Notes: generated from the sequence alone by a model not told the origin. DNA of 64,000 nt from Candidatus Levyibacteriota bacterium (GCA_016182235.1 JACOXT010000003.1:130209-194208); one strand, 5' to 3'; positions 6,007-47,475 are shown, counted from the stretch's first letter. Program-made: numbers and translations.

Positions 6007-6008
6007 AC

Positions 6009-8254: not shown

Positions 8255-8303
8255 ACTTGCAAGTTTTTCTGCTTCGCTTTTATTAATGAATAAATATTAG
8301 GAG

Positions 8304-14889: not shown

Positions 14890-14897
14890 AGTGTCAA

Positions 14898-15950
14898 ATG
14901 AAAACAGAAAATATTACCCTTTCAAACAACGACAAGCTTAGCATATTAAGCGATCTTTCGACCATGCTTTCTGCTGGAATTCCTCTTCTTGAAAGCGTCA
15001 ATGCCCTGCTTGAAGACTCAAAAGGAAACCAGAGAAAACTTTTAGAGACTCTGCAAAGCGACCTGACTCAAGGCAAGCATGTGTACTTTACTTTTTCCAA
15101 ATTTCCAAATGTTTTTACAAAAGTTACAACAAATATTGTTAAGGCATCTGAAGAGGCTGGGACGCTAGATGTCACACTAAAGGATCTTAAAGATAATTTG
15201 AAAAAAGAGATAGAGTTCTCAGACAAAATAAAATCAGCTTTAGTGTATCCACTATTTATAGTTTTTGTTTTTTTCGGAGTACTACTTATGATTCTTATTG
15301 TGGTAATTCCTAAAATTTCCTCAGTCTTTTTAAGACTAAATGTTGAGTTGCCATTACCAACCAAGATGCTAATCTTTATGTCAAATGCGCTTTTGACTCA
15401 GACAATCCCTGTAGTGATAGGATTTGTATTATTCACTTTGGTACTGCTATTTCTTTACAAAAAAAATAAGTCATTTCTTTTAAACGCATTATTTAATTTG
15501 CCGCTTCTGTCTAGCTTGGCAAGAGATATTGATCTCACTCGCTTTTCAAGAAGCTTTTACCTTCTTCTTAACGCAGGTCTGCCAATTACAAATGCTTTGG
15601 AGCTGACAGAAGACGTTATTGTAAAAAAAGAGGTTGCAACTGCTGTCAGGCATGCTAGAGAAGCAGTGGTTGGAGGCAAGAAGCTTTCGGAAGGCTTCAA
15701 AGACAAAAAGAAGATTTTTCCCTCAATCGCAATAAGAATTACTGAGGCGGGAGAAAGAAGCGGAACTCTGGACAAATCCATGGTTGAGATTTCAGAATTT
15801 CTTGATTATCAAACAGGCAATCGCCTAAAAACAATAACCTCGCTTCTTGAACCAATCCTTATGGTTGTGATTGGAGGATTGGTTGGCGGAATGATGCTTG
15901 CGATTATTGCCCCCATATATGGACTTATTGGACAAATCGGACAAAGATGA
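14898..15950 (+). CDS. pilC: Type IV pilus platform protein (GspF/PilC family)
   Basis: Duplicated T2SF domain with three TM segments. Adjacent to pilB. Confidence 0.9.
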   Translation: MKTENITLSNNDKLSILSDLSTMLSAGIPLLESVNALLEDSKGNQRKLLETLQSDLTQGKHVYFTFSKFPNVFTKVTTNIVKASEEAGTLDVTLKDLKDNLKKEIEFSDKIKSALVYPLFIVFVFFGVLLMILIVVIPKISSVFLRLNVELPLPTKMLIFMSNALLTQTIPVVIGFVLFTLVLLFLYKKNKSFLLNALFNLPLLSSLARDIDLTRFSRSFYLLLNAGLPITNALELTEDVIVKKEVATAVRHAREAVVGGKKLSEGFKDKKKIFPSIAIRITEAGERSGTLDKSMVEISEFLDYQTGNRLKTITSLLEPILMVVIGGLVGGMMLAIIAPIYGLIGQIGQR

Positions 15951-16423
15951 AGATTTTTAAAGTTTTAAAAAGTGGTCGCGGGTTTACCTTAGTGGAATTG
16001 GGAATAGTAATTGGCATGCTCGCGACCCTTATTGGATTTGCGACAATAAGTTTGTTAAATGTTCAACAGAAGGCCTCTATAAATACAACAGTTCAAGTAA
16101 TAATAGCAGACTTAAAAGCACAACAAGCAAAAGCAATGATTGGAGACACAGAGGGTAGGCCAACACCTAGCCCATATGGCGTGCATCTTGACAATGATCA
16201 ATACGTCTTATTTTATGGCTCAACTTATTCATCAACTGAGACAACAAATTTTGTAGTTAAGCTTTCTGAAAATCTTGAATTTACAACCCCAAGTACAGAT
16301 ATTATTTTTTCTCAAACAACTGGCGAAATATCATCGCCAGTTTCAATAACAATTAGAAATACCAGTAGCGAAGAGAAAACAATTCAACTAAATAAGTACG
16401 GAGTGGTTACGGGAGTAAACTAA
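15947..16423 (+). CDS. Prepilin-type pseudopilin
   Basis: Leader and cleavage/methylation motif MKIFKVLKSGRG/FTLVELGIVIGML. Confidence 0.8.
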   Translation: MKIFKVLKSGRGFTLVELGIVIGMLATLIGFATISLLNVQQKASINTTVQVIIADLKAQQAKAMIGDTEGRPTPSPYGVHLDNDQYVLFYGSTYSSTETTNFVVKLSENLEFTTPSTDIIFSQTTGEISSPVSITIRNTSSEEKTIQLNKYGVVTGVN

Positions 16424-16424
16424 G

Positions 16425-18398: not shown

Positions 18399-18967
18399 AG
18401 ACAATACAAATTGTTAAATTGCTAAATTGTTATATTGCCAAGTTAATAAAAAACAATACAACAATAAAACAATACAACAATCATAATGGCTTTACGATTG
18501 TTGAGTTGCTGATGTTTATGGGGCTTTTGTCAATAATGCTTGTTATATTGACGGGGATCTTTGTATCAGCTCTAGATGTTCAGCTTGAATCTGAAGCCAA
18601 TTCTTCTGTACAGCAAGATGGAAATTACATCCTTGCCAAATTATCGGGAGACATGCATAAGGCAACAAATATTTCAATCCCGAGTTCCTTAGGCGGATCT
18701 GCAACCAATTTTCAAGTAGTTGTTGGAGGTGTAAGCTATACGTATAATGTAAATTCGGATAACCTTGAGCTAAATGATGGGGTTTCAGCAGACGCTCTTA
18801 ATAGTTATAATTCAAGTATCTCTAATTTTTCGGCAACTCGATTGGGAAATAGCGGAAAAGTAGAAGATACGCTTAAAATTAATTTTACACTGACAAGCAA
18901 AACAAAAAAAAATACGGGTTTTGAGACAAAAGATTTTGAGACAACGCTTTCTCTTAGAAGACAATGA
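18395..18967 (+). CDS. Prepilin-type pseudopilin with an unusually long 32-aa leader
   Basis: ...YNNHNG/FTIVELLMFMGLLSIML. ATGA overlap with the upstream gene. Confidence 0.75.
   Translation: MKTIQIVKLLNCYIAKLIKNNTTIKQYNNHNGFTIVELLMFMGLLSIMLVILTGIFVSALDVQLESEANSSVQQDGNYILAKLSGDMHKATNISIPSSLGGSATNFQVVVGGVSYTYNVNSDNLELNDGVSADALNSYNSSISNFSATRLGNSGKVEDTLKINFTLTSKTKKNTGFETKDFETTLSLRRQ
18401..18482. repeat. Mirror-symmetric array of degenerate 8-bp repeats (about 4 x AAATTGNT, then about 4 x AACAATAN) inside the prepilin leader coding region
   Basis: Read directly: ttaaattg ctaaattg ttatattg ... aacaatac aacaataa aacaatac aacaatca. The arms are imperfect reverse complements. Confidence 0.6.
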
Positions 18968-19371
18968 TGCATAAATTTCAAATTTCAAATTTCAAATTTC
19001 AAATTTCAGAGGGTGGGCAGGCTTTAACTACACTTTTGATTTTTGTAATAATAGCTGTAACAATTACATCGGGAGCAATAGTAGTTCTTATCGCGAATAC
19101 CACATCGACAAGTAAAATTCAGGAAGGTTTGGCTGCGTATTACGCGGCAGAGAGCGGCGTTGAGAATGCGCTACTTCGTCTGTTAAGAGACCCGAATTAT
19201 ACAGGTGAAACTTTATCTATAGATACGTCAACTGCTGAAATTACCGTAACAGGAAGTAATCCAAAAACTGTTGTTTCAGTTGGGCAAAATGGAAACTTTA
19301 AACGCACTGTTCAAGTACAAATGAATTATAATAGTGGGTATTACACCTTTTCCAGTTGGAAAGAGATTTAA
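18964..19371 (+). CDS. PilX-N-like minor pilin / pseudopilin
   Basis: GGQALTTLLIFVIIAVTITSGAIV followed by AAYYAAESGVENALLRLL, the PilX N-terminal pattern. Confidence 0.6.
   Translation: MMHKFQISNFKFQISEGGQALTTLLIFVIIAVTITSGAIVVLIANTTSTSKIQEGLAAYYAAESGVENALLRLLRDPNYTGETLSIDTSTAEITVTGSNPKTVVSVGQNGNFKRTVQVQMNYNSGYYTFSSWKEI
18973..19007. repeat. Perfect tandem heptamer (AAATTTC) x5 in the 5' coding region of the PilX-like gene
   Basis: Read directly; encodes KFQISNFKFQIS. The unit length is not a multiple of three. Confidence 0.9.
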
Positions 19372-19373
19372 TT

Positions 19374-20099
19374 ATGTTTTCAAAAAACAATACGATTATT
19401 TTACTATTAGATAGAAGCGGATTTATTCTATTTAGAGACAGCTTGACGAATGTTTTGAGGTTCCCATTTGCGCCTGATATTGTCGCGAATCTGGATGTAG
19501 TTAATAAAGATCAGCTTACTAATCTAGTCATTTCCTTTATTGAAAAAAATAAGATAAATCCAGGCATAATGGTAGTATTATTGTCAGACGCTACTATATA
19601 CGAAAAAAACATATCTATACTTCCGCAGAAAACTCAATCTTCGGTTAACGGCATGAATCATAACTTTAATCACGAGGAAGAGATTCAACAGTATCTCCAG
19701 AATATTCCATTTGAAGACATTCTTGCCAGGGTTATAAAAACAGAGAAGAATTCCATGTTGGTTGCGGCCAACAAAGATCTTATTTCTTCAATTATAAACC
19801 CATTTATTAAAAAGGGGTTTGTTGTAGAATATGTAGTTCCAAGCTTCTTATACGGACAAAACTTAAATATTACAAATGGATTAACGTCAGATATTGCTCG
19901 GGCAGTCTTAAGAAAAACAGAGTTATTAAAAGTTGCCAATCTGTTAATAGGTCAAGAACATATAAACATTCCTCAGGATTCGCAACGAAATGGAAAAGAT
20001 ATAGAAGAAAAACCAAAAAGTATCAGGCAATTTATTCTCATTGGTGTCTTTATTTTTTTGGCAATAGTTTTGGTAGTTATGCTTCTTACTTTAAAATGA
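19374..20099 (+). CDS. Hypothetical tail-anchored membrane protein in the pilus operon (possible PilM/N-like role)
   Basis: C-terminal TM FILIGVFIFLAIVLVVMLLTL. The ORF-track start at 19356 overlaps the upstream gene; the ATG at 19374 follows its stop. Confidence 0.5.
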   Translation: MFSKNNTIILLLDRSGFILFRDSLTNVLRFPFAPDIVANLDVVNKDQLTNLVISFIEKNKINPGIMVVLLSDATIYEKNISILPQKTQSSVNGMNHNFNHEEEIQQYLQNIPFEDILARVIKTEKNSMLVAANKDLISSIINPFIKKGFVVEYVVPSFLYGQNLNITNGLTSDIARAVLRKTELLKVANLLIGQEHINIPQDSQRNGKDIEEKPKSIRQFILIGVFIFLAIVLVVMLLTLK

Positions 20100-20103
20100 C
20101 CCC

Positions 20104-20133
20104 TTGACAACAGCTTTTTTATATGTTTATACT
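20104..20133 (+). promoter_or_regulatory. Consensus promoter TTGACA-18-TATACT for the major pilin
   Basis: TTGACA at 20104-20109 and TATACT at 20128-20133. This argues that the TTG start at 20104 in the ORF track is not used. Confidence 0.6.
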
Positions 20134-20157
20134 GGATATATCAGAAATTTACTGCCC

Positions 20158-20652
20158 ATGAAATTATTTAGAAATAATCAAAAAGGTTTTACACTCATAG
20201 AGCTTTTAGTCGTAATCGGCATCCTCGCAATCCTTCTGGCAATCACACTTATCGCTATTAATCCCGCAAGACAATTTGCCCAAGCAAACAATACCCAGAG
20301 ACAGAGTGATGTAAACGCAATCTTGAATGCTGTCCATCAGTATATGGCGGATAATAATGGCACTCCACCTGCGGGCATTCCTGTTGATGATGGAGATCCG
20401 GCAACAGATGACACTCTTCCAATTGGAGTAAATGCAGCACTCCCGGCAAGCGTAGTTGATCTTTGCACTCCTCTAGCTCCTACATATATTGCGGCCATTC
20501 CTACCGATCCGCAATCAGGCGTTACCCCTGTAACCGATTGTGCGGTTGATCACGATACTGACTACAGGATAGTACAAAGTGCTACAAATTCAAGAATTAC
20601 TATATCTGCTCCAGATGCTGAACTAACTGCAATCATTTCTGTAACAAGATAA
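20158..20652 (+). CDS. Type IV major pilin
   Basis: MKLFRNNQKG/FTLIELLVVIGILAILLAI, a class III signal, plus a C-terminal Cys pair. Start moved to the ATG at 20158. Confidence 0.85.
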   Translation: MKLFRNNQKGFTLIELLVVIGILAILLAITLIAINPARQFAQANNTQRQSDVNAILNAVHQYMADNNGTPPAGIPVDDGDPATDDTLPIGVNAALPASVVDLCTPLAPTYIAAIPTDPQSGVTPVTDCAVDHDTDYRIVQSATNSRITISAPDAELTAIISVTR

Positions 20653-20742
20653 ATTCCTCATAATACTTAAAATAAGATATATACTCTGGTTTTACTCATC
20701 TTATCTTGCATTACACAATATTCTCTATTATAATTTAATAAA

Positions 20743-22935
20743 TTGAGATTAATAGCCGGTGGATTTTTCTGTTTGTTTCTTTTTCTATTTTCTTTGAGTA
20801 ACGTAAATAAAGTTTATGCGGACTTAACTAATGAATTTTTTGCAACTAGCAATATCATTTGCAATAATTGGGTAAATATAGAAAGTTCTTTAGGTCCTCC
20901 TGATTTAATATATGCAACTATTTCTAACAAAATTCCTGTTTGTAGATGGAATTTTAATACACCTTTTAATATTCCTCTAGAGTCAGAAATAAATGAGATA
21001 AAAGTAAAAGTTTATTACAGCAGTTCAGGGAATAATGGTAATTCTTCAATGTCACCTTTTTATAATGGAATCCAATCGTGCGTTCCACCTCCTTTTTGGC
21101 CTGCTCGTATCTTTAACGATGCTCACGAATATGTAGTTACACCCTTAAATTGTCCTACAACATTTCCAACTCTTGCACAACTGAATAGTTCTGGGATGAG
21201 TTGGCGTTTCTTCAACTCAGGCAATATAAACGCAGCTATAGATGCAGTATCCATGCGGGTTTCTTATACTCCATTCAGTACGCCAGCTCCTCTTCCCCTT
21301 TTCGATCTTCCGTGGGATTATGAGGGGAAAGGAATTTCATTTAATGAGGCCGCATTGGCGATAAATTCATATTTTGACCATGACTATCCTTTATTAAGTT
21401 CTGGTTTAAGCGAGCCAGCAGACAGTTTGGGGACAATTATTAATTATTTAGGTTTTCCCCGTGTGAATAAATTTTACTCGAGTCATGATGGTTATGATTA
21501 TGGCATACCTGCAAATGTTCATCTCGGCGATCCAGTTCTGGCTGCAGGAGATGGAATTGCGACTTATATTAATTCCTGTAGTGATTGCGGAAATATGATT
21601 ATTATAGATCATGGAAACGGATATCAAACTCGATATCTTCATTTACAAAAAGATGGATTAATATCATCCACTCCTGGTGAAGAAATTAATGTAAATGCAG
21701 GACAGCAAATTGGCCTTGTTGGCGCGACTGGGAAAACTACAGGAGCCCATATCCATTTTGGAGTTTTCCAAGACAAAAATAATGATGGAAATTTTTCAGA
21801 CAATATCCCAGATGGTGTAACAGATCCATTTGGATGGCAGTCAAAAGATCCTGATCCTTGGGAGACTTACTCGTTTTTCTACAATGGTGAAGATAGATCA
21901 GGAAATAAATCTTATTATCTTTGGAAGAAAAATCTTGACAAGCTTGACGCGATACTTACATCAAATGGCGGCGTATTTAATACAGAAAGATTTGAACTTG
22001 ATTTTCCGCAAGATTCGGTAGTTAACGAAACGCATTTGAGCATTAAGTCGGCTCCAATAATAAAAGACTTAAATAACCTTTCGTCTATTGGTTCAACTTT
22101 AGACATTCATGCTTTTGATTCTCAGGGCAACGAAGTTTTAAATTTTGAAAAAGAATTCACTTTGACGGTTGGTTTTAATGACTTTGATCTTATCCCTTAT
22201 AACACAGATAGTTTCTCTATTTATTCAAGTGCGGATGGAGTTGTTTGGAATAAAGAACCAACTCTTGTTGATTTTGTTAATAAGTCTGCAATTGCTAGAT
22301 TTAATCACCTAACTCATTTTGCTCTTATGGCAGAAAGATTTGATACAGATCCTCCCGTTACGACTGCTGTTTTAGATGGACAAAATGGTCAATCAAATTG
22401 GTTTAGATCCGATGCTTATGTTAGTTTAAATTCGGATGACGGAAGAGGTTTGGGTACTGACTATACTTTATATAGAAAAGAAGATGAGGACTGGGAAACT
22501 TACGAAGGCCCACTACTATTTACCGATGAAGGGCATCATAAAATAGAATTTTATTCTGTTGACAAAGACGAAAATATTGAGGATGTGAAATCAGTAAAAT
22601 TCGATATTGATAAAACAGCGCCTGAGGCAGAAATTGACATAAATCCCAAAACAATTTGGCCGGCAAACGGGAAGATGATAAATATTTCTGTTACCGGCGA
22701 TGTAAGCGATTTACATCTATTCTCCAAACAAATTTTAGTTATTGACGAGTATGACCAAATACAGCCTGCTATTTCTGATTTTGGACAAACAATTCAGCTT
22801 GAAGCAAAAAGAAGAGGTAATGATTTAGATGGAAGAATATATGTTCTAGGAATACTAGCAGAAGATTTAGCAGGAAATGTAAAAGAGGATCAAGTTAAAG
22901 TAGTAGTTCCTCATGATCAGGGAAAAGACAAATAG
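20743..22935 (+). CDS. Secreted M23 family metallopeptidase with a C-terminal Ig-like/adhesion region
   Basis: Signal peptide; HDGYDYG (HxxxD), IIIDHGNGYQTRYLHL, GATGKTTGAHIHFGVF (HxH). Confidence 0.85.
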   Translation: MRLIAGGFFCLFLFLFSLSNVNKVYADLTNEFFATSNIICNNWVNIESSLGPPDLIYATISNKIPVCRWNFNTPFNIPLESEINEIKVKVYYSSSGNNGNSSMSPFYNGIQSCVPPPFWPARIFNDAHEYVVTPLNCPTTFPTLAQLNSSGMSWRFFNSGNINAAIDAVSMRVSYTPFSTPAPLPLFDLPWDYEGKGISFNEAALAINSYFDHDYPLLSSGLSEPADSLGTIINYLGFPRVNKFYSSHDGYDYGIPANVHLGDPVLAAGDGIATYINSCSDCGNMIIIDHGNGYQTRYLHLQKDGLISSTPGEEINVNAGQQIGLVGATGKTTGAHIHFGVFQDKNNDGNFSDNIPDGVTDPFGWQSKDPDPWETYSFFYNGEDRSGNKSYYLWKKNLDKLDAILTSNGGVFNTERFELDFPQDSVVNETHLSIKSAPIIKDLNNLSSIGSTLDIHAFDSQGNEVLNFEKEFTLTVGFNDFDLIPYNTDSFSIYSSADGVVWNKEPTLVDFVNKSAIARFNHLTHFALMAERFDTDPPVTTAVLDGQNGQSNWFRSDAYVSLNSDDGRGLGTDYTLYRKEDEDWETYEGPLLFTDEGHHKIEFYSVDKDENIEDVKSVKFDIDKTAPEAEIDINPKTIWPANGKMINISVTGDVSDLHLFSKQILVIDEYDQIQPAISDFGQTIQLEAKRRGNDLDGRIYVLGILAEDLAGNVKEDQVKVVVPHDQGKDK

Positions 22936-32798: not shown

Positions 32799-33239
32799 AT
32801 GAAGCTTTCATCTTTGACAAAAATAACGGCAGTTGAGAAAAGAAGACTTGGACAAGGCCCTGGGTCAGGAAGGGGAAAAACAGGCGGTCGTGGCACAAAG
32901 GGGCAAAAAGCAAAAAGAACAATTCCTCTTGATTTTGAAGGAGGAGCGCTTCCTCTTATAAAAAGACTTCCTTTTATGAGAGGGAAGGGTAAAAATAAGC
33001 TGTTTAAGAAAAAACCAATTATTATTAATGTAAAGGCATTAAATCTATTGAAAAAGGATAGCATAGTTGACTTAAAGACTCTTGTTGCAAATCGTATAGT
33101 TCTTGAGGAGGAGGGAAAAATGTATGGTGTTAAAATTTTGGGAGATGGAGAACTTTCTATTCCCCTAACTGTAAAATTGCCAGTTTCCAAGGGAGCTAGG
33201 AAAAAAATTGAGAAAATAGGTGGAAAGGTGGAGGTATGA
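32799..33239 (+). CDS. rplO: 50S ribosomal protein L15
   Basis: [17 protein letters not shown]. It starts 3 nt after rpsE, so there is no L30 gene. Confidence 0.94.
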
Positions 33240-34522
33240 ATAGCATATTCGAGGTTTTTACCAGAAGCTTAAAGACTCCAGAGGTAAGGAAAAAACTTCT
33301 ATTTACGTTTGGGATATTTGTAATATTTAGAATTTTTGCTCATATACCAGTTTCGGGTGTGAATTTAGCCGCGTTAAAAGCGCTTTTTTCTCAAAATCAA
33401 TTCTTAGGACTTTTGGATATCTTTTCCGGGGGAACTCTTGCAAATTTTTCAGTGATGGCTCTGGGGCTTAATCCTTATATCAACTCTTCAATTATCTTGC
33501 AGCTTTTAACCATGGTTTTTCCAAAGCTTGAGGCTTTATCAAAAGAAGGAGAAACTGGACGGCAGAAAATAAATCAATATACTAGATTTCTTACAGTTCC
33601 CTTGGCGGTTTTACAAGCCGTTGGAATGTACGCTTTACTTAGAAGCCAGGGAATTATTTCCTCTTTAGACCCAGTTAACATTGTTTCATTTGTCGTCACA
33701 ATGACTGCCGGTACAATGCTTCTTGTCTGGCTGGGAGAACTTATTTCTCAAAAAGGAGTTGGAAATGGCATATCTTTATTAATTTTTGCGGGAATAGTCA
33801 ACAGAATTCCTGTAATTTTTGGTCAAACAATATCAACTGCGCAAGCCGCCAATTATTTCAATCTGGCGGTCTTTATTGTGATGGGGGTAATGGTAATAGC
33901 TTCAATAGTTGTTATTAATGAAGGCACTCGCAAGATAACGGTTTATTATGCTAAAAGAGTAAGAGGAAACAAGATGTATGGAGGTCAGTCAACGCATCTC
34001 CCCCTTAGGGTTAATCAGGCAGGAGTTATTCCGATCATTTTCGCGGTTTCTTTGGTGCTTCTTCCATCAATTGTCGCGAACTATCTGACAGCATCTCCAA
34101 ATAAGATTTTATATAACATTGCTACATCAGTTACAGCGCTATTCAATCCGTCCGGCCCATTTTATAACGGATTGTACTTTTTATTAGTTGTTGGGTTTAC
34201 TTATTTTTATACCGCAGTAATTTTTAGCCCAAAAAAAATAGCCTCAGAAATACAGAAATACGGCGGTTTTATTCCGGGCATTAGGCCGGGAAGTCCTACC
34301 GCAAACTACTTAAACTATATCTTAACTCGCATAACGCTGGCCGGTGCAATTTTTTTAGGTACCATAGCAATCTTTCCAGAAATCGCCCGCGCGCTTACAA
34401 ATGTTCAGACTCTTGTTCTGGGCGGAACGGGAATACTGATTGTGGTCTCTGTGGTTTTGGAGACTATTAAGAAAATTGAAGCTCAATTGGTAATGAGAAG
34501 TTACGAAAGATTCACTAAGTAA
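33236..34522 (+). CDS. secY: Preprotein translocase subunit SecY
   Basis: 10-TM protein; [16 protein letters not shown]; position in the cluster. Confidence 0.97.
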
Positions 34523-34533
34523 AATCCTAAACT

Positions 34534-35076
34534 ATGAAGATAATATTGATTGGTATTCAAGGTGCGGGAAAATCTACTCAAGGAAACCTTCTTTCAAAGG
34601 AACTCGGAATTCCCTACCTTTCAACAGGACATATATTTAGGGCTCTTGCCAAGGAGAAGACAAAACTTGGTCGCTACATAAAAGAGGTAATGAATGCAGG
34701 GTATCTTATCCCTGACAGAAAAACAATGTCGATTGTTAGCGACTATCTCAAAAGATCTAAATATCAGAATGGATATATATTGGACGGTTTTCCAAGGACT
34801 ATTGTGCAGGCAAAGGCGTTTAGAAATGGAATTGACAAAGTGATTTACCTTAGAGTCTCTGATAAAGAGGCATTGTGGAGACTTTCTTATAGAAATGGGG
34901 ATGACCGAAATGATGAGACATTGATGGCGATTAGAAAAAGAATCGAGCTTTTTCATAAATTGACAGAGCCGGTTTTAGATTTTTACCGAGCAAAAAAAGC
35001 GTTAATTGAGGTTGACGGCGAAAGGCCGATAGGGGAGATTTATAAGGAAATTTTAGATAAAATTAACACTAAATAA
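34534..35076 (+). CDS. adk: Adenylate kinase (short form without a zinc lid)
   Basis: GIQGAGKSTQ, ILDGFPRTIVQA. Confidence 0.88.
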   Translation: MKIILIGIQGAGKSTQGNLLSKELGIPYLSTGHIFRALAKEKTKLGRYIKEVMNAGYLIPDRKTMSIVSDYLKRSKYQNGYILDGFPRTIVQAKAFRNGIDKVIYLRVSDKEALWRLSYRNGDDRNDETLMAIRKRIELFHKLTEPVLDFYRAKKALIEVDGERPIGEIYKEILDKINTK

Positions 35077-35081
35077 TTGCT

Positions 35082-35735
35082 ATGGTTGAGGCAGGATCTG
35101 GTATTCAAGGTAGTTCGCCAGAGGCTCAAGAAAGAAGGCGGGAAATAGTTGTGATTTGCGGTCCGGAAGGGTCCGGAAAAACAACTCAAGCAATTAATCT
35201 TTCGAGAGATTTAAATTTACCTTATGTCACAATGGGGGATGTATTTGTAGAACTAGCAAAAGAGGAAACAGAATTCGGCCTAGAAATTAAAACTATGCTA
35301 AAAGAACATAGATACTCGACCATAAAAGAGTTTGAAACGGCTTTTCTTTGGAGAATGGCAAAAGGTGATGTTAAAGAGGGATTTATACTTGATGGAGGAT
35401 TTAGGACAGTAGAGCAAGTTCAAAATTTTGAGTTACAGCTCAGAAAAGCAGGGATATCAGAGAGCATTCCTATTGATGTTGTATATTTCCGTGTAGCAGG
35501 ATGGGAGGCAATAGATAGGGTTTTAACTGGAAACAGAGAGGGTCGTTTGTATGACACTGAGGAAGGAGTATTAGATAGACTTTCTCATCATTATTATCAA
35601 TTAGGAGAAAGAATGTCATATGCCCGAAGGAAATGGCCATTTATTATAATAGATTGCACAAATAAGACTGAAGAGATGATCGAAGAAGAGACAATGAAAA
35701 ATTTAGCAGCTAACAGGGTGGTGATGAAAGAATGA
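35082..35735 (+). CDS. Adenylate-kinase-family paralog (divergent NMP kinase)
   Basis: GPEGSGKTTQ, ILDGGFRTVEQV. Confidence 0.65.
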   Translation: MVEAGSGIQGSSPEAQERRREIVVICGPEGSGKTTQAINLSRDLNLPYVTMGDVFVELAKEETEFGLEIKTMLKEHRYSTIKEFETAFLWRMAKGDVKEGFILDGGFRTVEQVQNFELQLRKAGISESIPIDVVYFRVAGWEAIDRVLTGNREGRLYDTEEGVLDRLSHHYYQLGERMSYARRKWPFIIIDCTNKTEEMIEEETMKNLAANRVVMKE

Positions 35736-35935
35736 ATGAAAGATATCAGGAATTGCATCCGTTACATTTTGAAATTCTAAATGAAGTTAAAGATGCTTCA
35801 GGAAATAAGCGGGTATCATTAGCAAAGGATTATATTAGCGGAATCGATGGAGGTTTAGCAACAACGTTTGATACGGAAGTGAACTTTGAGGGATTATTAA
35901 TACTTAAGAATCTACTCGAGAAAAGACTAAAATGA
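35732..35935 (+). CDS. Hypothetical 67-aa protein embedded in the kinase array
   Basis: 4-nt overlap with the upstream gene. No recognisable motif. Confidence 0.45.
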   Translation: MNERYQELHPLHFEILNEVKDASGNKRVSLAKDYISGIDGGLATTFDTEVNFEGLLILKNLLEKRLK

Positions 35936-35949
35936 AGTAATTCAAACGC

Positions 35950-36534
35950 ATGGCGCTAACAGAACATAAACCTTTTATTATCGGAATTACCGGGGCGTTT
36001 GGGAGCGGCAAGTCAACAGCCGCTAATTTTTTTGAAGATAAGGGGCTTAAAAAAATCGTTCTCTCCTCTTTCATTGAGGAGGAAGCGAAAAAAAGAGGGA
36101 TAAAAAAGATTACCAGAAAGTTGTTACAAGATATTGGAAATGATTTAAGAGATAAATTTGGTTCTGGAATTCTTGCTAAAAAAGCAGTTCTATTTTTGAA
36201 AAATGAGAGGTTAGATAGGGCAGTTGTTGATGGAGTGAGAAATCTTGGTGAAGTTGAAGAATTTAAAAAGAATAGCAATTTTGTTCTTATCGCGGTTGTA
36301 GCTAATCGAAAAACCAGGTTTGAACGCTTAAGAAATCTTAAAAGACGTGAAAAGTTAAATTGGGATACATTCGAAAAGCTTGATAGAAGAGATCTGGGCA
36401 TTGGAGAGAAACAAACAGGTCTTCAAACAGCTTTTTGCATAGCTTCGGCTGATATATTTGTCGAAGGAAATGAAGATATTGATGAATTTAGGCAAAAACT
36501 AGATAAGATTCTAAGAAGAATTGAGAATTTATGA
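35950..36534 (+). CDS. P-loop kinase of the dephospho-CoA-kinase / dNMP-kinase-like type
   Basis: IIGITGAFGSGKSTAANFF resembles the CoaE P-loop. Substrate unknown. Confidence 0.55.
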   Translation: MALTEHKPFIIGITGAFGSGKSTAANFFEDKGLKKIVLSSFIEEEAKKRGIKKITRKLLQDIGNDLRDKFGSGILAKKAVLFLKNERLDRAVVDGVRNLGEVEEFKKNSNFVLIAVVANRKTRFERLRNLKRREKLNWDTFEKLDRRDLGIGEKQTGLQTAFCIASADIFVEGNEDIDEFRQKLDKILRRIENL

Positions 36535-37091
36535 TAATTGTTTTTATAGGCCCGCCATTTGCGGGAAAAGATACTCAAGCAGTAATGCTGTCAAAGAAAT
36601 TATCGTTATCGCTATTTAGCATGGGTGGTTTGATAAGAGAAGCTCGTGAGAAAGGAGACAAAGTTATAGAAGATGCATATAGGAATTATTCATTGAAAGG
36701 CTTGCATCTGCCGATTGGTATTAAGTTTGGGTTGCTTAGGAAAAAAATAGAAAATCTCAATGACGGATTCATTCTAAACAATTTCCCTGCGACAAATGAA
36801 GACCTGCAAGTTTTTAATGAATATTTAAAAGAGCATAATCTAAGCGTATATAAAGCATTTTATCTAAATATCTCAAAAAATATAATGCAAAAAAGACTTG
36901 ACGCATCAACCAGAAAAAGATCGGATGATGATTTAAAAATAATTTTGGCAAGAAGAGAGATACAAGACAAAGATAGAATTCCTGTTATCAATTACTTTAG
37001 AAATTTGGGAATACTTGAGGAGGTAGACGGAGAAAGAGAGATTGATGAGGTAAATAAAGATATATTAAGTCGTTTGAGAAAAATAACATGA
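36531..37091 (+). CDS. Adenylate-kinase-family paralog (third copy)
   Basis: GPPFAGKDTQ, ILNNFPATNEDL. Confidence 0.65.
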   Translation: MIIVFIGPPFAGKDTQAVMLSKKLSLSLFSMGGLIREAREKGDKVIEDAYRNYSLKGLHLPIGIKFGLLRKKIENLNDGFILNNFPATNEDLQVFNEYLKEHNLSVYKAFYLNISKNIMQKRLDASTRKRSDDDLKIILARREIQDKDRIPVINYFRNLGILEEVDGEREIDEVNKDILSRLRKIT

Positions 37092-37870
37092 TCAATATTA
37101 AAACTAAAGAGGAAATAGAGATAATGAGAGAAGGGGGAAGGATATTGGCGGAAGTTTTATTTACGCTTATTGAAAGTGTGAGGCCAGGAGTTTCTGAGCT
37201 GGATATTGATAAACTTGCCGAAACATTAATTTTAAAGGCGGGAGGAGAACCAGCATTTAAAAGAGTGAAAGACTACAAAAATACAATTTGTGTATCTACA
37301 AATGACGTTGTAGTTCATGGCGTCCCAACTGACTATACATTTAAAGAAGGGGACGTTGTCGGAATAGATTGCGGAGTCTATTATAAAGGATTTAATACGG
37401 ATATGGCGGAAACGCTTCGCGTCTCAACAGAGAACGAAGGACTAAGAACTAAAAACTCAAGTAATGAAATAGATAGGTTTTTGGAGACTGGGATGAAGGC
37501 GCTTCAGGCTGGGATAAATGCCGCTCATTTAGGAAATAGAGTTGGACATATTTCTAGGGCAATCCAGAGCATTGTTGATAAGGAAGGATACTCTGTTGTA
37601 AAGAGTCTTGTTGGGCATGGGATTGGGCAAAACCTTCACGAGGAGCCAGATGTGCCTGGATATCTTTCTCAATCTCTTGATAAGACTTCGGAGTTAAGAC
37701 AGGGAATGGCAATTGCGATTGAGGCCATCTATAATATGGGAAAAGATGATGTAATTTACTCCAACTCAGACGGATGGACTATTAAAACTAAAGATCAAAG
37801 CTTGTCAGGGCTTTTTGAAAGAACAGTCGCGATTACAAAAGAAGGGCCATTAATCTTAACTAAGAAGTGA
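37088..37870 (+). CDS. map: Methionine aminopeptidase type I
   Basis: GIDCGVYYKGFNTDMAET, GHGIG, IEA. Carries an extra segment of about 9 aa encoded by a heptamer repeat. Confidence 0.93.
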   Translation: MINIKTKEEIEIMREGGRILAEVLFTLIESVRPGVSELDIDKLAETLILKAGGEPAFKRVKDYKNTICVSTNDVVVHGVPTDYTFKEGDVVGIDCGVYYKGFNTDMAETLRVSTENEGLRTKNSSNEIDRFLETGMKALQAGINAAHLGNRVGHISRAIQSIVDKEGYSVVKSLVGHGIGQNLHEEPDVPGYLSQSLDKTSELRQGMAIAIEAIYNMGKDDVIYSNSDGWTIKTKDQSLSGLFERTVAITKEGPLILTKK

Positions 37871-42214: not shown

Positions 42215-42775
42215 CTAAAGTACGCTGCTATGTAGCAACATACTTTGGAAATGTCTATTTTCTAATAATTCTTGTACTTCCAACACGCTCCAGGGGGAAT
42301 ATTTATTTGGGTTTTTATTTATATCTTCAACAAATGTTTTCCATTCAATCCATTTAGTGTCTTCAATCTCATCTTTATTGATCACTGGTTTCTGATTTGT
42401 AAATCCAACAAGAACAGGACATATCTCATTTTCTACAATTTCATCCTTTTCTACCCTATAAGAAAAGTTGGGTAGTATTTCGTGTAATTCGCCAAGTTCT
42501 ATTCCTAATTCAAATATTGCTCTCCTTTTTGCAGCATTAATACTTGACTCATTTAACTTTGGATGTCCGCAGACGGAATTTGACCATACCAACGGCCAAG
42601 TTTTTTTCTTGCGACTTCTTTGCTGAAGCAATAGTTCTCCATCAGAATTAAATAAAAAAACAGAAAAACCCCTATGAAGCGGCGTATTAGCATTATGAGC
42701 TGCTAATTTTGGAGAGGTTCCCAAAACATTATTTTGTTTATCAACTAAAACAACGTATTCTTGATTACTATTCAT
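42215..42775 (-). CDS. idi: Isopentenyl-diphosphate delta-isomerase, type 1 (Nudix fold)
   Basis: LHRGFSVFLFNSDGELLLQQRS..K..WPLVWSNSVCGHP. Confidence 0.85.
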   Translation of the reverse strand: MNSNQEYVVLVDKQNNVLGTSPKLAAHNANTPLHRGFSVFLFNSDGELLLQQRSRKKKTWPLVWSNSVCGHPKLNESSINAAKRRAIFELGIELGELHEILPNFSYRVEKDEIVENEICPVLVGFTNQKPVINKDEIEDTKWIEWKTFVEDINKNPNKYSPWSVLEVQELLENRHFQSMLLHSSVL

Positions 42776-42781
42776 ATTACT

Positions 42782-43099
42782 TTATTTTTTCCACAACGCG
42801 ATTAAGAAATTAATTAACAAGTATAATAATAAAGCCTGCCAAAGAAGTATTGAAATTAAAACAGTGCTTAAGAAAATTGCAATCGCTTCTCTTCTTAGGC
42901 CATAAAAATCCAATAGAAATGCTCCAAGTCTGCCAAAAACAAAAAAGGAAGCAAGACCTATAAATGGGGAGAATATAACAGGTAAAAGGACAGGTCGTCT
43001 TGTAACTTGTCTTATTGTGGAGAAAGGATGGAATGTAATACCAAGAAGTGTCTTGGTCCATACATAAGCGACAAAGATTAAAAATGTACTTTTCTTCAT
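42782..43099 (-). CDS. Hypothetical integral membrane protein
   Basis: Three predicted TM helices. Follows the sigma factor operon. Confidence 0.5.
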   Translation of the reverse strand: MKKSTFLIFVAYVWTKTLLGITFHPFSTIRQVTRRPVLLPVIFSPFIGLASFFVFGRLGAFLLDFYGLRREAIAIFLSTVLISILLWQALLLYLLINFLIALWKK

Positions 43100-43120
43100 G
43101 TCCTTCGACTCCGCTCAGGA

Positions 43121-43348
43121 TTATAATTTTCCAAATATCTTCAAAATAAATTCATCATAGCGTCCTCCAAATAGTCCGTGAAGTATTAAAGTGACAATTA
43201 ATGCAAGCGGAATTAAAATTCTATAAGGGTGATTGCCTAACCAGAAACTTACAGAAGTAAAGATATTTGGCAAAAACGTGCTTTTTATGATTTTTTCTTG
43301 TTCCTTCGCTCTTTGCTCTAGTGTTTTAAGAAATTCACGCTCGTTCAT
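43121..43348 (-). CDS. Small membrane protein, possible anti-sigma factor
   Basis: 14-nt overlap with the ECF sigma gene. Cytoplasmic N-terminus followed by TM segments. Confidence 0.4.
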   Translation of the reverse strand: MNEREFLKTLEQRAKEQEKIIKSTFLPNIFTSVSFWLGNHPYRILIPLALIVTLILHGLFGGRYDEFILKIFGKL

Positions 43349-43871
43349 AAGCGAGTTTAAAACTCCGGCGGGCTCTAAAAAGAAGAGATTCCGTTGCTTT
43401 GAAAGTTAAATTTAAAATAATTGATAGTTCTTTTACTGAAACATTTTCTTCATAATGAAGTCTTAATATTTTTTGATACTTAAGAGAAATTTTATGGAAT
43501 GTAAACTCAATTCTATCCCGGATTTTATTTTTTTCGTATTGGAATTCCGGTTGATTAATTTCAGAAGCAACGATTTGTAGAAATGGCATTTGGGATAAAA
43601 GTATTGATTTTATTTTCCTTTTACGATAAAAATCAACCATTTTGTTGTGGGCTATTCGATAAAGCCAAGAAGAGATATTTTCTTCTTTACTAAGCATTGA
43701 TAATGAGTCAGTTGCTTCTAAAAAAACGTCATTCGTCAGCTCCTGCGCATCCTCAAAACATGGTAGTTTTTTTGAAAGATAAGAGAGAATCTTTGGGGAG
43801 TAAAATTTGTAAAATTCTCTTACTGCTTTACTGTCTCCTTCCAGGATTCGTTTTACAAAAGAGTGAGACAT
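43335..43871 (-). CDS. ECF-type RNA polymerase sigma-70 family factor
   Basis: Region 2 WLYRIAHNKMVDFYRKRK; region 4 HTH LSVKELSIILNLTFKATESLLFRAR. Confidence 0.85.
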   Translation of the reverse strand: MSHSFVKRILEGDSKAVREFYKFYSPKILSYLSKKLPCFEDAQELTNDVFLEATDSLSMLSKEENISSWLYRIAHNKMVDFYRKRKIKSILLSQMPFLQIVASEINQPEFQYEKNKIRDRIEFTFHKISLKYQKILRLHYEENVSVKELSIILNLTFKATESLLFRARRSFKLAYERA

Positions 43872-43959
43872 AATGAGATTATAACAGATTTATTATCAAA
43901 GTTGCATTTTCGAATGATTTTGCCCAATTCTCCGTCTAAATTATAAAGAGGGCAAAATT

Positions 43960-44676
43960 ATGAAAGAGCAAGAAAGACAAATTGATCCATTAAAAGAACC
44001 AGTCGCAGAAGAGACAATTGGAGCTATTGTTGAGGAATGTCATAGAATATTTCTTGACCCAACGCCTCCTACAATAGTAAAAGAGTCAATATTTGATGAT
44101 CGTGAAGGGATAACAAGAGATGGAAAAACCGTTGCAATAATACATAATTATTTTAGAATTGATTCGGAAGATGAAAAAAATGGAGAGATGGCGGAACGAT
44201 ATGGTCTTAAAGATACTTCCTTTTCAGATTCATACAATCCAATAAATAGATATGGCATACATGTTACAGAGATATTTAGCCAAGATAGTACTAAACCAAA
44301 GAAAATTATTTCAATAGATAAATATTTTCTTGCAGAAGATTTAATAGACAACGGCATAATAAATGATAAGTATCAAGTGATTTCTTATTTATATGCAATA
44401 GATTCAGATGCTAATTTTTTGCAATTATATATATGTCATCCTGCTTTATTATTTTGGTTTCCAAAAGAACTTCCTTTAGCGGAGAACGAGGCCAAAGATC
44501 TTTTGACAAGAGGAGTTCCCATGGCTAGAGTTAGTTTTGAGACAGGTTGGCCTAACTTTGGTGTTTCTCTTTCTGATGCAATTAGACCAAGTGAGGAACA
44601 CGCACAAACTTTACTTCAGTCGTTAAAGGGATTACAGCAGGTTATAAGAATAAATCTTGATAAGCCGGACTTTTAG
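43960..44676 (+). CDS. Hypothetical protein
   Basis: Long ORF with no motif I recognise. Confidence 0.5.
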   Translation: MKEQERQIDPLKEPVAEETIGAIVEECHRIFLDPTPPTIVKESIFDDREGITRDGKTVAIIHNYFRIDSEDEKNGEMAERYGLKDTSFSDSYNPINRYGIHVTEIFSQDSTKPKKIISIDKYFLAEDLIDNGIINDKYQVISYLYAIDSDANFLQLYICHPALLFWFPKELPLAENEAKDLLTRGVPMARVSFETGWPNFGVSLSDAIRPSEEHAQTLLQSLKGLQQVIRINLDKPDF

Positions 44677-44784
44677 TTTTAAAAATTTTAATTTTTACTC
44701 CGAATGATTACGGGGAATTTTACGACTATAATTATACTAATACTTAGCATGGATAGGGTACAGGCTTAATGTTTATAATAAACT

Positions 44785-45300
44785 ATGGTTGAATCTTTTC
44801 GTCCAGGTTTTCCAATAGATGAATCTGGTGTGTCTATTCCAACTACGGAGCAACCTAAGTACAAGGACTTAATCAATCTTCCAGGTAATCATAGAAAATT
44901 AATTGCAGAAAGGATTGCGAAGTTGGATATTCCCCTATCTGAGTCAGAGCTTAAGTTTTTTGAGTTTCCAAATAGGCATAACGGTTCAGACGCAGTCTAT
45001 TTGTTGGAACAGTTTGTAGATGAAGATTGGCTTTTGGCTTCTCATCTTGAACCAAAGCGCAATACATCCAGACATAAACACATTGCTCCTATGGGTACAG
45101 AGCAATATTATTGGCTTGCTGGAGAAGCTATTCTTAATATCGATGGAGAGGATGTGCCATTAGATAGTGAGCATGATTTTAGAGTGGTTCCATTAGATGC
45201 GGTTCATCAATTAAGAACAGAAGGTGCTTTTGTTCTGACTCTTATCGTAATGAAAAACGCAAGATTGGTAACGCCGGAAAATCGACATATTCGCGTTTAA
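44785..45300 (+). CDS. Cupin-fold protein (hypothetical)
   Basis: HKHIAPMGTEQYYWLAGEAILNIDGE...VVPLDAVHQLRTEG resembles the two cupin motifs. Confidence 0.5.
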   Translation: MVESFRPGFPIDESGVSIPTTEQPKYKDLINLPGNHRKLIAERIAKLDIPLSESELKFFEFPNRHNGSDAVYLLEQFVDEDWLLASHLEPKRNTSRHKHIAPMGTEQYYWLAGEAILNIDGEDVPLDSEHDFRVVPLDAVHQLRTEGAFVLTLIVMKNARLVTPENRHIRV

Positions 45301-45316
45301 GTTCTGTATCTCCATT

Positions 45317-46093
45317 ATGAGAAAAGTAATCCTTATTAAATTTGGAGGATCAATAATTACGGACAAAAACGTGCCGTATAAGGCGCGTCCAGATGTTATA
45401 AGAAGATTAGCAAAAGAGTTGAAAAAAATAAAAGATGCATCTATAATTCTTGCTCATGGTAGCGGAAGTTTTGGGCATACTTCTGCCAAAGAATTTGGGG
45501 GAAAAAAGGGTTATAAGAGTAATTGGGGCATTGCCAAAGTTGCAAGGGATGCAATGGAAATAAATAGAATTGTTATGGACATACTTGTTGATGAAGGATT
45601 ACCCACAGTATCTCTTCGACCCATGAGCATGATGACAACAAATGCTGGAAAGCTAGAAGAAAATTTCTTTAAACCAATAGTTGAAGTTCTCAATCGAGAC
45701 TTACTACCCGTTGTATATGGAGATGTTATTTGGGACAGAGAATGGAAAAGTACAATTCTTTCTGGAGAGGTGATCCTTAATGAAATTGGAAAATATCTAA
45801 TGAAAAAGGGCTTTAAGGTTGGTAAAATTATTCAGGTTGGAGAAACAAATGGAGTTTATGACGATAATGGCAACACAATCCCTTTTATTACAAATACAAA
45901 CTGGGAGAATATTAAACATTATATTTTTAGAAAAAATAAAATTGATGTAACTGGAGGAATGCGACACAAAATAGAAAACGCATTACTAATAGCAAATGAA
46001 GGTGTTGAAACATGGATTGCTAATGGAATTATTCCAAACGAATTATCTCATGCGCTTAACGGCAAAGATATTCGAGGTACGATTATTCAATAA
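45317..46093 (+). CDS. Isopentenyl phosphate kinase (amino acid kinase family)
   Basis: ILIKFGGSIITDK, AHGSGSFGH, DVTGGMRHKIENAL. Confidence 0.8.
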   Translation: MRKVILIKFGGSIITDKNVPYKARPDVIRRLAKELKKIKDASIILAHGSGSFGHTSAKEFGGKKGYKSNWGIAKVARDAMEINRIVMDILVDEGLPTVSLRPMSMMTTNAGKLEENFFKPIVEVLNRDLLPVVYGDVIWDREWKSTILSGEVILNEIGKYLMKKGFKVGKIIQVGETNGVYDDNGNTIPFITNTNWENIKHYIFRKNKIDVTGGMRHKIENALLIANEGVETWIANGIIPNELSHALNGKDIRGTIIQ

Positions 46094-46095
46094 AT

Positions 46096-46806
46096 ATGAT
46101 CAGAGAAAGAGAATCAGGTAGCATTAATGGGGTCCACCTTGAACAGGAAAGAAGAAAAGGATTTGGAGTACTTTTGCCTATCGTTGAGATAGATCCCAGT
46201 AGAAATGGAGAAAATATAACACAGCCTAAATTGTTCACTATTATAGAGAAGAAATCTAAGCCTGAGACAGGAAAGATAGCTGGACAAATTTCATTTCCAG
46301 GCGAAACTGCAAAAATTCATAATGAACCGATGGGGGACAATATAATTGGAGGAATAGCAGAGGTTACAGATAATGATTATACAATTAGAAACAATATTTT
46401 TTTCATGCGAGATTCCTCTTTTATTAAAGAAAGAATTTTTATAAACGGCAATCCTTTTGATATGGCTATATTAATACATGTTGGTCCTTTCGATAATGCC
46501 ATCAAACCTGTGGATGTTAATGAAGTTTCACCAAACGGACCAATGACAATTCAAGAAATTAGAAGAAAAGATCCTACCAGAGATTCTAGAATTGTAAGAC
46601 GAATTGTGCATCAAGTCGCAGACTTAGAAGATTCGGAAGGTCTCATAAGAAGGGTCGTATCTGACTTTTTTAATTTTCCTACCTTGAGAATTCCTTTGCG
46701 AGCTATTTTGCCTGATGGCTTTTCCTCTATAAGGGATTTTTTTCAAGAAAGAGAAAGGACTGTAGACGTTATTGGCTCACTTTCCAAACCTTCTCTGTCT
46801 TCTTGA
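46096..46806 (+). CDS. Hypothetical protein with a degenerate Nudix-like segment
   Basis: GQISFPGETAKIHNEPMGDNIIGGIAEVT lacks the REx2EE catalytic residues. It starts 3 nt after the kinase gene. Confidence 0.45.
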   Translation: MIRERESGSINGVHLEQERRKGFGVLLPIVEIDPSRNGENITQPKLFTIIEKKSKPETGKIAGQISFPGETAKIHNEPMGDNIIGGIAEVTDNDYTIRNNIFFMRDSSFIKERIFINGNPFDMAILIHVGPFDNAIKPVDVNEVSPNGPMTIQEIRRKDPTRDSRIVRRIVHQVADLEDSEGLIRRVVSDFFNFPTLRIPLRAILPDGFSSIRDFFQERERTVDVIGSLSKPSLSS

Positions 46807-47475
46807 GTATTCTGCAATAGCGTTTTCTATATCTTCGTCATTAAGATCTGGAAAGTGTTTCTCAAGAAAAAAATACTCCGCATATGCTGCTTGCCAGATC
46901 ATAAGGCCTGATGTTCGCATCTCTCCACTTGTTCTTATGATTAAATCCGGATCAGGATGAGGTTGATTAGCAGTATCTAAAAATTGGCTAAAGTTCTCTA
47001 TGTTAATACTTAATACTTTATACTTTATACTTAATACTTTCTTTATTGCCCTTATTACTTCATCGCGTCCTCCATAATCGAGCGCAATATTTAAGACATA
47101 TTTGTCAAATGATTTTGTTTTTTCCTCTGAATTTTGGATTTTTTTAAGTAAACCTTTTGGGATTCTGTCTTTTCTTCCAAGATGAATAATTCTTATTTTT
47201 TCCTTCATTGCCTCCTTTAGATTTTTGTCTATGAATATTTCGTACATCTTCATAAGGTAATTCACTTCTTCTTTACTTCTGTCCCAATTTTCAGTTGAGA
47301 ATGCCCACATTGTGAGAGTATTAACGCCAAGGGATCGAATTTTTCTCCCGATTTTTATTGCCACATCAAATCCTCGTCTATGTCCTTCAAGACTTGGAAG
47401 TCTGTGTTCTTTTGCCCACCTTCTGTTTCCATCAGGAGTAATTGCTATATGATTAGGGATATTAAGATTAGCCAT
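46777..47475 (-). CDS. uppS: Isoprenyl transferase (undecaprenyl diphosphate synthase family)
   Basis: HIAITPDGNRRWAK, DLIIRTSGEMRTSGLMIWQAAYAE. Confidence 0.92.
   Translation of the reverse strand: MANLNIPNHIAITPDGNRRWAKEHRLPSLEGHRRGFDVAIKIGRKIRSLGVNTLTMWAFSTENWDRSKEEVNYLMKMYEIFIDKNLKEAMKEKIRIIHLGRKDRIPKGLLKKIQNSEEKTKSFDKYVLNIALDYGGRDEVIRAIKKVLSIKYKVLSINIENFSQFLDTANQPHPDPDLIIRTSGEMRTSGLMIWQAAYAEYFFLEKHFPDLNDEDIENAIAEYSRRQRRFGK
47003..47037. repeat. Five tandem heptamers (ttaatac ttaatac tttatac tttatac ttaatac) inside the uppS coding sequence
   Basis: Read directly. On the minus strand it encodes KVLSIKYKVLSI. Confidence 0.8.

Follow-up and report, generated by a model that had tools for sequence, protein, structure and literature searches.

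In archaea the spc operon has the order secY-adk-...-cmk, with genes for adenylate kinase (Adk) and a CMP kinase downstream of secY. The window described here, that is, the whole 64,000-nt stretch of DNA that was analyzed, includes spc operon genes, among those for ribosomal proteins, from a genome of Candidatus Levybacteria (Microgenomates/Patescibacteria). The interval between its secY and map genes on the + strand, which we term the slot, is filled by five tightly packed ORFs, here called A to E: three Adk-family genes, a further P-loop kinase gene and a small orphan. In contrast to the archaeal operon, the genes here are bacterial in type, and the one that stands last, immediately before map, varies. 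We tentatively favor the view that the adk-map slot is modular, that E has replaced cytidylate kinase (Cmk) in place, and that B and D are accessory kinases.

The bacterial short-LID Adk (M. tuberculosis, PDB 2cdn/1p4s) shares K13, R36, R123, R156 and R167 with A and E. E differs from it in Ala88, Tyr/Phe10, Met31 and Asp92 and in its cmk position, while B differs in having DGG[FL]R for DGFPR, a remodelled segment at residues 56-64 and an N-terminal extension. Bacterial Cmk (TIGR00017/PF02224) has in common with E the nucleoside monophosphate (NMP) kinase fold and a place as last gene before map, but no specific sequence relationship, and the Cmk proteins of the relatives are 225-240 aa long against 186 aa for E. 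The eukaryotic UMP/CMP kinases (TIGR01359; PDB 1tev, 2ukd) show by precedent that enzymes of the Adk family can act on pyrimidine NMPs; unlike E, they keep the equivalent of Arg88 (GFPRN). D shares with the archaeal UPF0200/arCOG01045 proteins (SSO1041, TK1334, TK2192) a full-length alignment and fold, those of SSO1041, and a routine misannotation as dephospho-CoA kinase (DPCK), but it is bacterial (Patescibacteria), is embedded in an operon beside adk, and scores below the equivalog cut-off of PRK08356. With the anti-phage dCTP deaminases (NF041025, PADLOC dCTPase) D shares the kinase-like N-domain, but neither the deaminase domain nor a defence-island context. The slot and its two anchors are made up as follows.

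secY, 33236-34522, + strand, 428-aa ORF, upstream anchor of the slot
A (adk), 34534-35076, + strand, 180 aa, canonical short-LID adenylate kinase
B, 35082-35735, + strand, 217 aa, divergent paralogue of the Adk family, N-terminus extended by ~20 aa
C, 35732-35935, + strand, 67 aa, orphan ORF between B and D
D (D1), 35950-36534, + strand, 194 aa, probable P-loop kinase of the SSO1041/UPF0200 type (arCOG01045-like)
E, 36531-37091, + strand, 186 aa, Adk-family paralogue without Arg88, directly before map
map, 37088-37870, + strand, methionine aminopeptidase (TIGR00500, 250.7 bits; cut-off 171), downstream anchor

The genes are spaced by gaps of 5 and 14 bp or joined by three 4-bp ATGA overlaps, and their translations bear the motifs GIQGAGKSTQ and DGFPRT (A), GPEGSGKTTQ and DGGFRT (B), GITGAFGSGKST (D), and GPPFAGKDTQ and NNFPAT (E). 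The original prediction for this DNA was correct as to the genes, their coordinates, these motifs and the tight or overlapping packing; its three Adk-family genes and fourth P-loop kinase were also upheld, all intact and with diverged acceptor-site motifs. A promoter and terminator scan gave no signal exceeding shuffled controls and no terminator-like site within the array, and the array genes, which sit just upstream of map, infA and rpsK in the ribosomal-protein operon, are presumably co-transcribed. Identical proteins are already in GenBank (MBI2028185-MBI2028189, from a Candidatus Levybacteria metagenome-assembled genome), where they bear the automatic names “nucleoside monophosphate kinase” (three), “hypothetical protein” and “dephospho-CoA kinase.”

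Against Pfam ADK (PF00406; gathering threshold 26.8 bits) A scores 122.2 bits [2.5e-35], B 60.2 bits [3.2e-16] and E 64.0 bits [2.2e-17], so that all three lie above the threshold and their membership of the Adk family is far beyond chance; D has no match to this model, its matches being to generic P-loop families. With the Cmk model TIGR00017 (cut-off 135.55 bits) B, D and E gave no significant match and A gave 20.8 bits over the P-loop only. The UMP-CMP kinase model TIGR01359 (cut-off 207.6 bits) is matched below its cut-off by A (99.3 bits), E (90.5 bits) and B (44 bits). Within the 64-kb window no cmk was found by tblastn with four Cmk sequences from the relatives, nor any further small P-loop kinase outside the array.

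For comparison, 80 species-representative loci were retrieved with the SecY of the window as query (52-87% identity), without selection for kinases, and every ORF between secY and map was classified, so that the census comprises 81 adk-map intervals. The relatives are Levy-, Gottesman-, Davies-, Woyke- and Roizmanbacteria, and SecY similarity puts the window in Levybacteria. The terminal gene is a canonical cmk in 29 loci, E in nine (the window included) and, in 20, a gene termed D2 which is homologous to D1 (hhalign probability 99.6%); no locus among these 58 occupied terminal slots has two of the three. Two representatives of the relatives' cmk (L003 and L014) were checked on TIGR00017 and scored 191-214 bits, above the cut-off. 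The order within the slot is Adk, an optional B-type gene, an optional D1, and one terminal gene (Cmk, E or D2). D1 is present in 11 loci; the gene after it is Cmk in six, E in four and a different Adk-like gene in one. L009 has Adk-B-D1-Cmk; the window, L048, L085 and L092 have Adk-B-D1-E, and with Adk-B-(C)-D1-E the window is the fullest form in the comparison. Most Levy- and Gottesmanbacteria loci carry extra genes in the slot, and at least 12 loci have an adk-only interval of ~520-570 bp. A model for archaeal CMP kinases is weakly matched by 14 of 16 D2 members as against none of 55 D1 members.

Since E occupies the position of cmk alternatively to it, we consider E a candidate in-place substitute for cytidylate kinase, equivalent to cmk by position and with a putative activity upon CMP or dCMP. 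In 80 independent metagenomic loci bearing E, the gene stands directly before map in all 70 with a classifiable next gene; it follows Adk or D1, B is present in one of the loci, and no cmk was found within +/-6 kb of it. The array had been described earlier as inserted into a canonical secY-adk-map order, but in this lineage an empty adk-map gap is the exception and cmk its commonest occupant, so that the window presents one variant of a variable slot and no unique insertion. Nor is the array conserved as a fixed four-enzyme module.

In a tree built from SecY, loci ending in Cmk, E or D2 are intermingled among close relatives. Neighboring pairs include L013 (Cmk) and L020 (E), L014 (D1 and Cmk) and L018 (E), and L001 (B2 and D2) and the window itself. 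L081, a closer relative retrieved through a protein look-up (93% SecY identity), carries Adk-D1-E and lacks both B and C, and a relative with 87% SecY identity has Adk-B2-orf-D2. Because the states are interspersed and close relatives differ, the content of the slot has changed many times.

Several loci depart from the general scheme. In L007, L042, L078 and L080 the first gene after secY (373-378 aa) encodes an Adk fused in frame, C-terminally, to a D2-type (UPF0200-like) kinase domain, which suggests that the two activities are functionally coupled. In L053 the terminal position is taken by a third Adk-like gene (DNLIRS). In the Levybacteria relative L008 a 6.5-kb insertion (L008:6806-12043) lies between adk and cmk; its genes encode a protein of the B12-binding/radical-SAM kind and a nucleotide pyrophosphatase resembling Maf, and three further unknown genes run on the opposite strand, one of which (404 aa) begins with an Adk-like GxxGxGK...SSGDLLR motif.

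The E family consists of 116 clusters, all with at least 48% identity, and those with a named source come only from Levybacteria/Patescibacteria. Residue statistics were drawn from 113 aligned sequences. The invariant or nearly invariant residues are G7, P9, [YF]10, G12, K13, T15, Q16, M31, G32 and R36 in the N-terminal part, H59, K65, F66, N84, F85, P86, A87 and D91 in the middle, and R122, R128, R130, D132, D133, R141, Q145, D148 and R149 in the C-terminal part, a pattern which points to strong constraint upon the family. At the position equivalent to Arg88 (residue 87 of E itself) Ala is found in 106 of the 113 sequences, Gly in seven and Arg in none, and the P-loop Gly10 is replaced by Tyr (68 sequences) or Phe (44). 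Relative to Adk the acceptor site shows the changes Thr31 to Met, Gly85 to Asn, Arg88 to Ala and Gln92 to Asp, the last of these invariant. His59, Lys65, Gln145, Asp148 and Arg149 are new invariant residues specific to this family, and the ATP-site residues, the LID arginines and the acceptor-phosphate Arg36 are invariant throughout it.

By the residues usual for Adk, E lacks Arg88 and has a P-loop other than GxPGxGKGT. Its score on the UMP-CMP kinase model (90.5 bits) is nearly that on the NCBIfam adk models (99 bits), all of these being below cut-off; TIGR01359 is matched by 61 of 61 E members tested and by none above cut-off. The predicted structure (pLDDT 93.5) superposes on closed, ligand-bound M. 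tuberculosis Adk with a TM of 0.90. E would then be an Adk-fold phosphotransferase which keeps the ATP-site and LID residues and has a remodelled acceptor site; this site, in which the base-recognizing Gln92 of Adk has given way to an invariant Asp, fits the substitution of Cmk.

When 1.84 billion representatives were searched with a profile, the NFPAT hallmark of E turned up in only a handful of 50%-identity clusters. In the next relatives residue 88 is still basic, as in P0285 (DNFPRTAED) and P0301 (EGFPKTQED). Together with P0330 and P0353 these are short Adk-like proteins with Asn85 and an acidic residue 92 as in E, Arg or Lys88, and a longer basic LID insert, and they are possible intermediates between ordinary Adk and the Arg88-less family. 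As the relatives with a basic residue 88 look intermediate, E may represent a branch that arose from an older paralogue of Adk. A recent duplication of the resident adk was rejected, A and E matching at only ~52 bits. Phage origin of D or E was likewise rejected: among 2.9 million viral contigs (IMG/VR) there are no relatives of D1 and no true relatives of E, the one match being Adk-like with 25% identity.

D had been put forward as a CoaE-like protein supplying the dephospho-CoA kinase that a CoA cluster elsewhere in the window appears to lack, a role which closer analysis did not support. It scores 24.2 bits on the CoaE Pfam model PF01121 (cut-off 27) over residues 10-50 only, that is, the P-loop, and 22.8 bits on TIGR00152 (cut-off 65.55). 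In CoaE an Asp-x-Asp after strand 2 is the proposed catalytic base, and a helical domain binds CoA. When D is aligned with CoaE of H. influenzae (1jjv), the stretch LVDAD faces IVLSSF, and the Asp-x-Asp residues are Leu/Ser/Phe. The AlphaFold model of D (pLDDT 92.2) gives TM values of 0.49-0.63 with CoaE structures; its top Foldseek match is 3lw7, which is SSO1041 bound to AMP (TM 0.78/0.88). With SSO1041 (PDB 3lw7/3h0k) D also aligns by phmmer over residues 10-191 [1.4e-17, ~30% identity].

D also matches PRK08356 over its full length [1.3e-17], at 64 bits and thus below the 189-bit equivalog cut-off. D further matches the N-domain of anti-phage dCTP deaminase [NF041025, 6.3e-16, model positions 3-208 of 437] and PADLOC dCTPase [90 bits, 3.4e-26], but at 194 aa it has no deaminase domain and falls outside the full definition of an anti-phage dCTP deaminase. 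PRK08356 and the NCBIfam anti-phage dCTP deaminase model are each matched by 55 of 55 D1 members. To judge from these scores, D is a subfamily related to PRK08356 and not a member of that equivalog. The family comprises 402 homologues, with invariant residues that include the P-loop, R56, Q60, R67, G95-x-R97, E101, R123, R126, D145 and D148.

Shimosaka et al. (PMC6650551) purified TK1334 and TK2192, archaeal members of arCOG01045 that bear the DPCK annotation, and detected DPCK activity in neither, and in the literature on the function of UPF0200, SSO1041 and arCOG01045 we found nothing beyond that report. The cloning primer for TK1334 encodes an N-terminus resembling that of SSO1041; because of this, and because the same weak CoaE-like resemblance is seen, D may be tied to arCOG01045. 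Given scores below threshold, a match limited to the P-loop, the poor fit to CoaE structures and the archaeal result, the assignment of D as CoaE was rejected, and D is probably not the missing dephospho-CoA kinase, in spite of the label “dephospho-CoA kinase” which GenBank and JGI give to proteins of this family. It is probably an arCOG01045/UPF0200-type kinase whose acceptor is probably a nucleotide, and possibly a cytidine nucleotide.

Gene A is the housekeeping adenylate kinase, the resident adk. In alignment with E. coli Adk it keeps K13, R36, R88, Q92, R123, R156, D158 and R167, it has a short LID, and in related Levybacteria the gene that directly follows secY matches it at 70-87% identity. 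Its best NCBIfam adk model gives 163 bits, below the 187-bit equivalog cut-off, as is common for divergent lineages. In Gottesmanbacteria the adk position holds a different type of Adk (GPEGSGKGTQ, DGFPRNVEQ; ~80 bits against that of the window), which follows secY in L031, L037, L038, L039, L045-L047, L049, L052, L053 and L061.

The B family, with ~25 clusters and named sources in Levybacteria and Woesebacteria, is rarer than the E family. Its consensus keeps K13, R36, R88 (in DGG[FL]R), R123, R156, D158/D159 and R167, and it is characterized by the N-terminal extension. The copy in the window departs from its own family, and from the residues expected of Adk, at Arg36 (Val) and Asp158 (Tyr); Arg36 is kept in 25 of 29 other B-family sequences and Asp158 in most, and this copy may be catalytically impaired. 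Loss of catalytic residues, which together with canonical NMP kinases elsewhere had been named as a mark of non-enzymatic or decaying paralogues, is in part seen in B. Within the slot B occurs only in the window, L048, L009, L085 and L092, and in a complete Woesebacteria genome it is a lone gene outside the operon. The idea that B evolves faster than D and E was rejected, as identities to the L085 proteins are 54% (B), 56% (D) and 51% (E).

ORF C (GenBank “hypothetical protein HYT07_01125”) has no Pfam, NCBIfam or PADLOC match, forms a singleton cluster and gave no tblastn match among the related loci searched. Small ORFs are found at its place, between B-type and D-type genes, in L001 (4535-4756, 73 aa) and L085 (1006-1347, 113 aa), but these and C have no mutual similarity (z about 0), and L048 and L009 have no ORF at that position. 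C was rejected as a conserved small protein, and it is probably not a conserved gene.

Patescibacteria do not synthesize nucleotides de novo and depend upon phosphotransferases of the Adk/Cmk type (bioRxiv 10.64898/2026.06.21.733656), and the substitution of Cmk by E fits a lineage dependent on salvaged nucleotides. Taken together, the gap between adk and map would in this lineage be a modular and often exchanged slot for small P-loop nucleotide kinases, in which E most likely replaces Cmk as a (d)CMP or pyrimidine NMP kinase in a cell living on salvaged nucleotides, D would be an arCOG01045/UPF0200-type kinase habitually placed just upstream of the CMP-kinase slot, and B an accessory Adk-like enzyme. 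We infer both the replacement of Cmk and all of the substrate assignments. A bolder proposal, which we regard as doubtful, is that in Microgenomates three kinases with distant kinship or none, namely Cmk, the Arg88-less E and the UPF0200-like D2, have taken each other's place time and again at a single operon position, E being a genuine CMP (pyrimidine NMP) kinase that dispenses with the Arg88 conserved in other Adk-family enzymes and uses His59, Lys65 and Arg149 in its stead.

Several considerations weigh against the replacement of Cmk by E. Substrates cannot be read from sequence. Arg88 is important for catalysis in characterized Adk-family enzymes, and to our knowledge its loss is unusual among characterized kinases of this family; without it, and with Tyr or Phe at Gly10, E may be a poor kinase or none at all. 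In both sequence and fold E is nearer to the bacterial short Adk than to the eukaryotic UMP/CMP kinases. Since at least 12 loci are Adk-only and 20 have D2 only, cmk, if universal, can lie elsewhere, and genomes bearing E might keep one there. The positional exclusivity could also reflect exchange of whole cassettes and not functional equivalence. As for D, the connection with TK1334 and TK2192 of arCOG01045 is one of family resemblance only.

These points lead to a rival view, in our estimate unlikely, that canonical cmk, gmk, tmk and pyrH are located elsewhere and that B, D and E are lineage-specific salvage extras in a recombination hot spot, which would widen or buffer salvage (dNMPs, modified or damaged nucleotides, conversion of NDP to NTP) and whose turnover is of little consequence. 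Differences in slot content between genomes sharing 87-93% SecY identity agree with such a view, as do the Adk-only loci, in which cmk need not be here, the lone B of Woesebacteria and the two family-conserved residues missing from that of the window, and the unrelated radical-SAM and Maf insertion at the same place in L008. It does not account for the strict mutual exclusion of Cmk, E and D2 in all 58 occupied terminal slots, nor for the fixed place of E before map and the strong conservation of E and D1. That E, and possibly B, are no longer NMP kinases but Adk-fold ATPases or nucleotide-binding factors, for example ribosome-associated ones like Fap7/AK6, or regulators of Adk/Cmk-type chemistry, seems improbable. 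The loss of Arg88 and the change of Gly10 to Tyr/Phe are conserved across the whole E family, and E belongs to a ribosomal-protein operon in which map, infA and rpsK come next; but adk and cmk also reside in this operon, so location tells little, the ATP site, LID arginines and Arg36 are invariant, the acceptor-binding domain is highly conserved and not degenerate, and the model of E fits a closed, ligand-bound Adk.

The proposal first made for the array, a consolidated module replacing several of cmk, gmk, pyrH and tmk with D as DPCK for the CoA cluster, now appears quite improbable, even though there are four kinase-fold genes with differing acceptor-site motifs, no other small P-loop kinase in the window, a CoA cluster without DPCK (CoaBC and a NUDIX-cytidylyltransferase-like fusion) and database labels to match. 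Apart from the case against D as a CoaE, most relatives have only one or two of these genes, and nothing ties B, D or E to GMP, UMP or dTMP. The part concerning cmk has positional support, through E only; for gmk, pyrH and tmk nothing was found either way. We give very little credence to a defence or phage-driven hot spot of nucleotide manipulation, to which the kinship of D with the kinase-like domain of anti-phage dCTP deaminases and the high turnover among close relatives, as in a defence island, might point; D has no deaminase domain, B, C and E match no other defence models, viral contigs hold no D1 or true E relatives, and the genes are embedded with translational overlaps in a core operon. 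Equally hard to credit is that these are decaying adk duplicates, pseudogenes in the making. The replaced R36 and D158 of B and the orphan state of C would agree with decay, but all the ORFs are intact, E (116 clusters) and D1 (402 homologues) form conserved families whose active-site residues are invariant, and A matches E or B at only about 50 bits, so that they are no recent copies of A.

NMP-kinase paralogues and non-orthologous displacement are known phenomena, of which this locus is a variant. Small kinases that rephosphorylate NMPs are central to the metabolism of Patescibacteria because their nucleotides are salvaged and not made. If cmk is indeed exchanged repeatedly for other kinases at a fixed operon slot, this would be a clean natural example of an enzyme replaced in place by an unrelated one, and would draw attention to an enzyme of the Adk fold whose active site is unusual. 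Were Cmk, E and D2 indeed to have displaced one another, this would be a first hint at the function of the orphan arCOG01045/UPF0200 family, whose members would be nucleotide kinases of the same pathway, and a testable lead for its widespread archaeal members. The analysis of D also corrects a recurrent “dephospho-CoA kinase” annotation, which bears on what is said of CoA biosynthesis in organisms with reduced genomes.

Elsewhere in the window, a CoA-related cluster occupies 4795-9314 on the - strand.

CoaBC (Pfam domains DFP and Flavoprotein), 4795-6006, - strand
402-aa protein without Pfam match, 6009-7217, - strand
NUDIX and cytidylyltransferase-like fusion, which may be PPAT-like, 7217-8254, - strand
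peptidase S58 gene, 8304-9314, - strand

No pantothenate kinase or DPCK is recognizable in this cluster, and the 402-aa protein is therefore a candidate for a missing step.

A possible isoprenoid cluster is found at 42215-47475; two Pfam matches only were computed there, and several of its ORFs have no Pfam match.

NUDIX protein, 42215-42775, - strand
amino-acid-kinase-family protein, 45317-46093, resembling isopentenyl phosphate kinase and not PyrH at its N-terminus
ORF resembling undecaprenyl-diphosphate synthase, 46777-47475, - strand

To judge from the translations alone, a run of type IV pilus or pseudopilin-like genes extends over 13207-22935 and starts with the following gene.

ATPase with the Walker A motif GPTGSGKT, 13207-14889

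After the ATPase come several short proteins whose hydrophobic N-termini resemble those of pilins (GFTLVELxxVIG).

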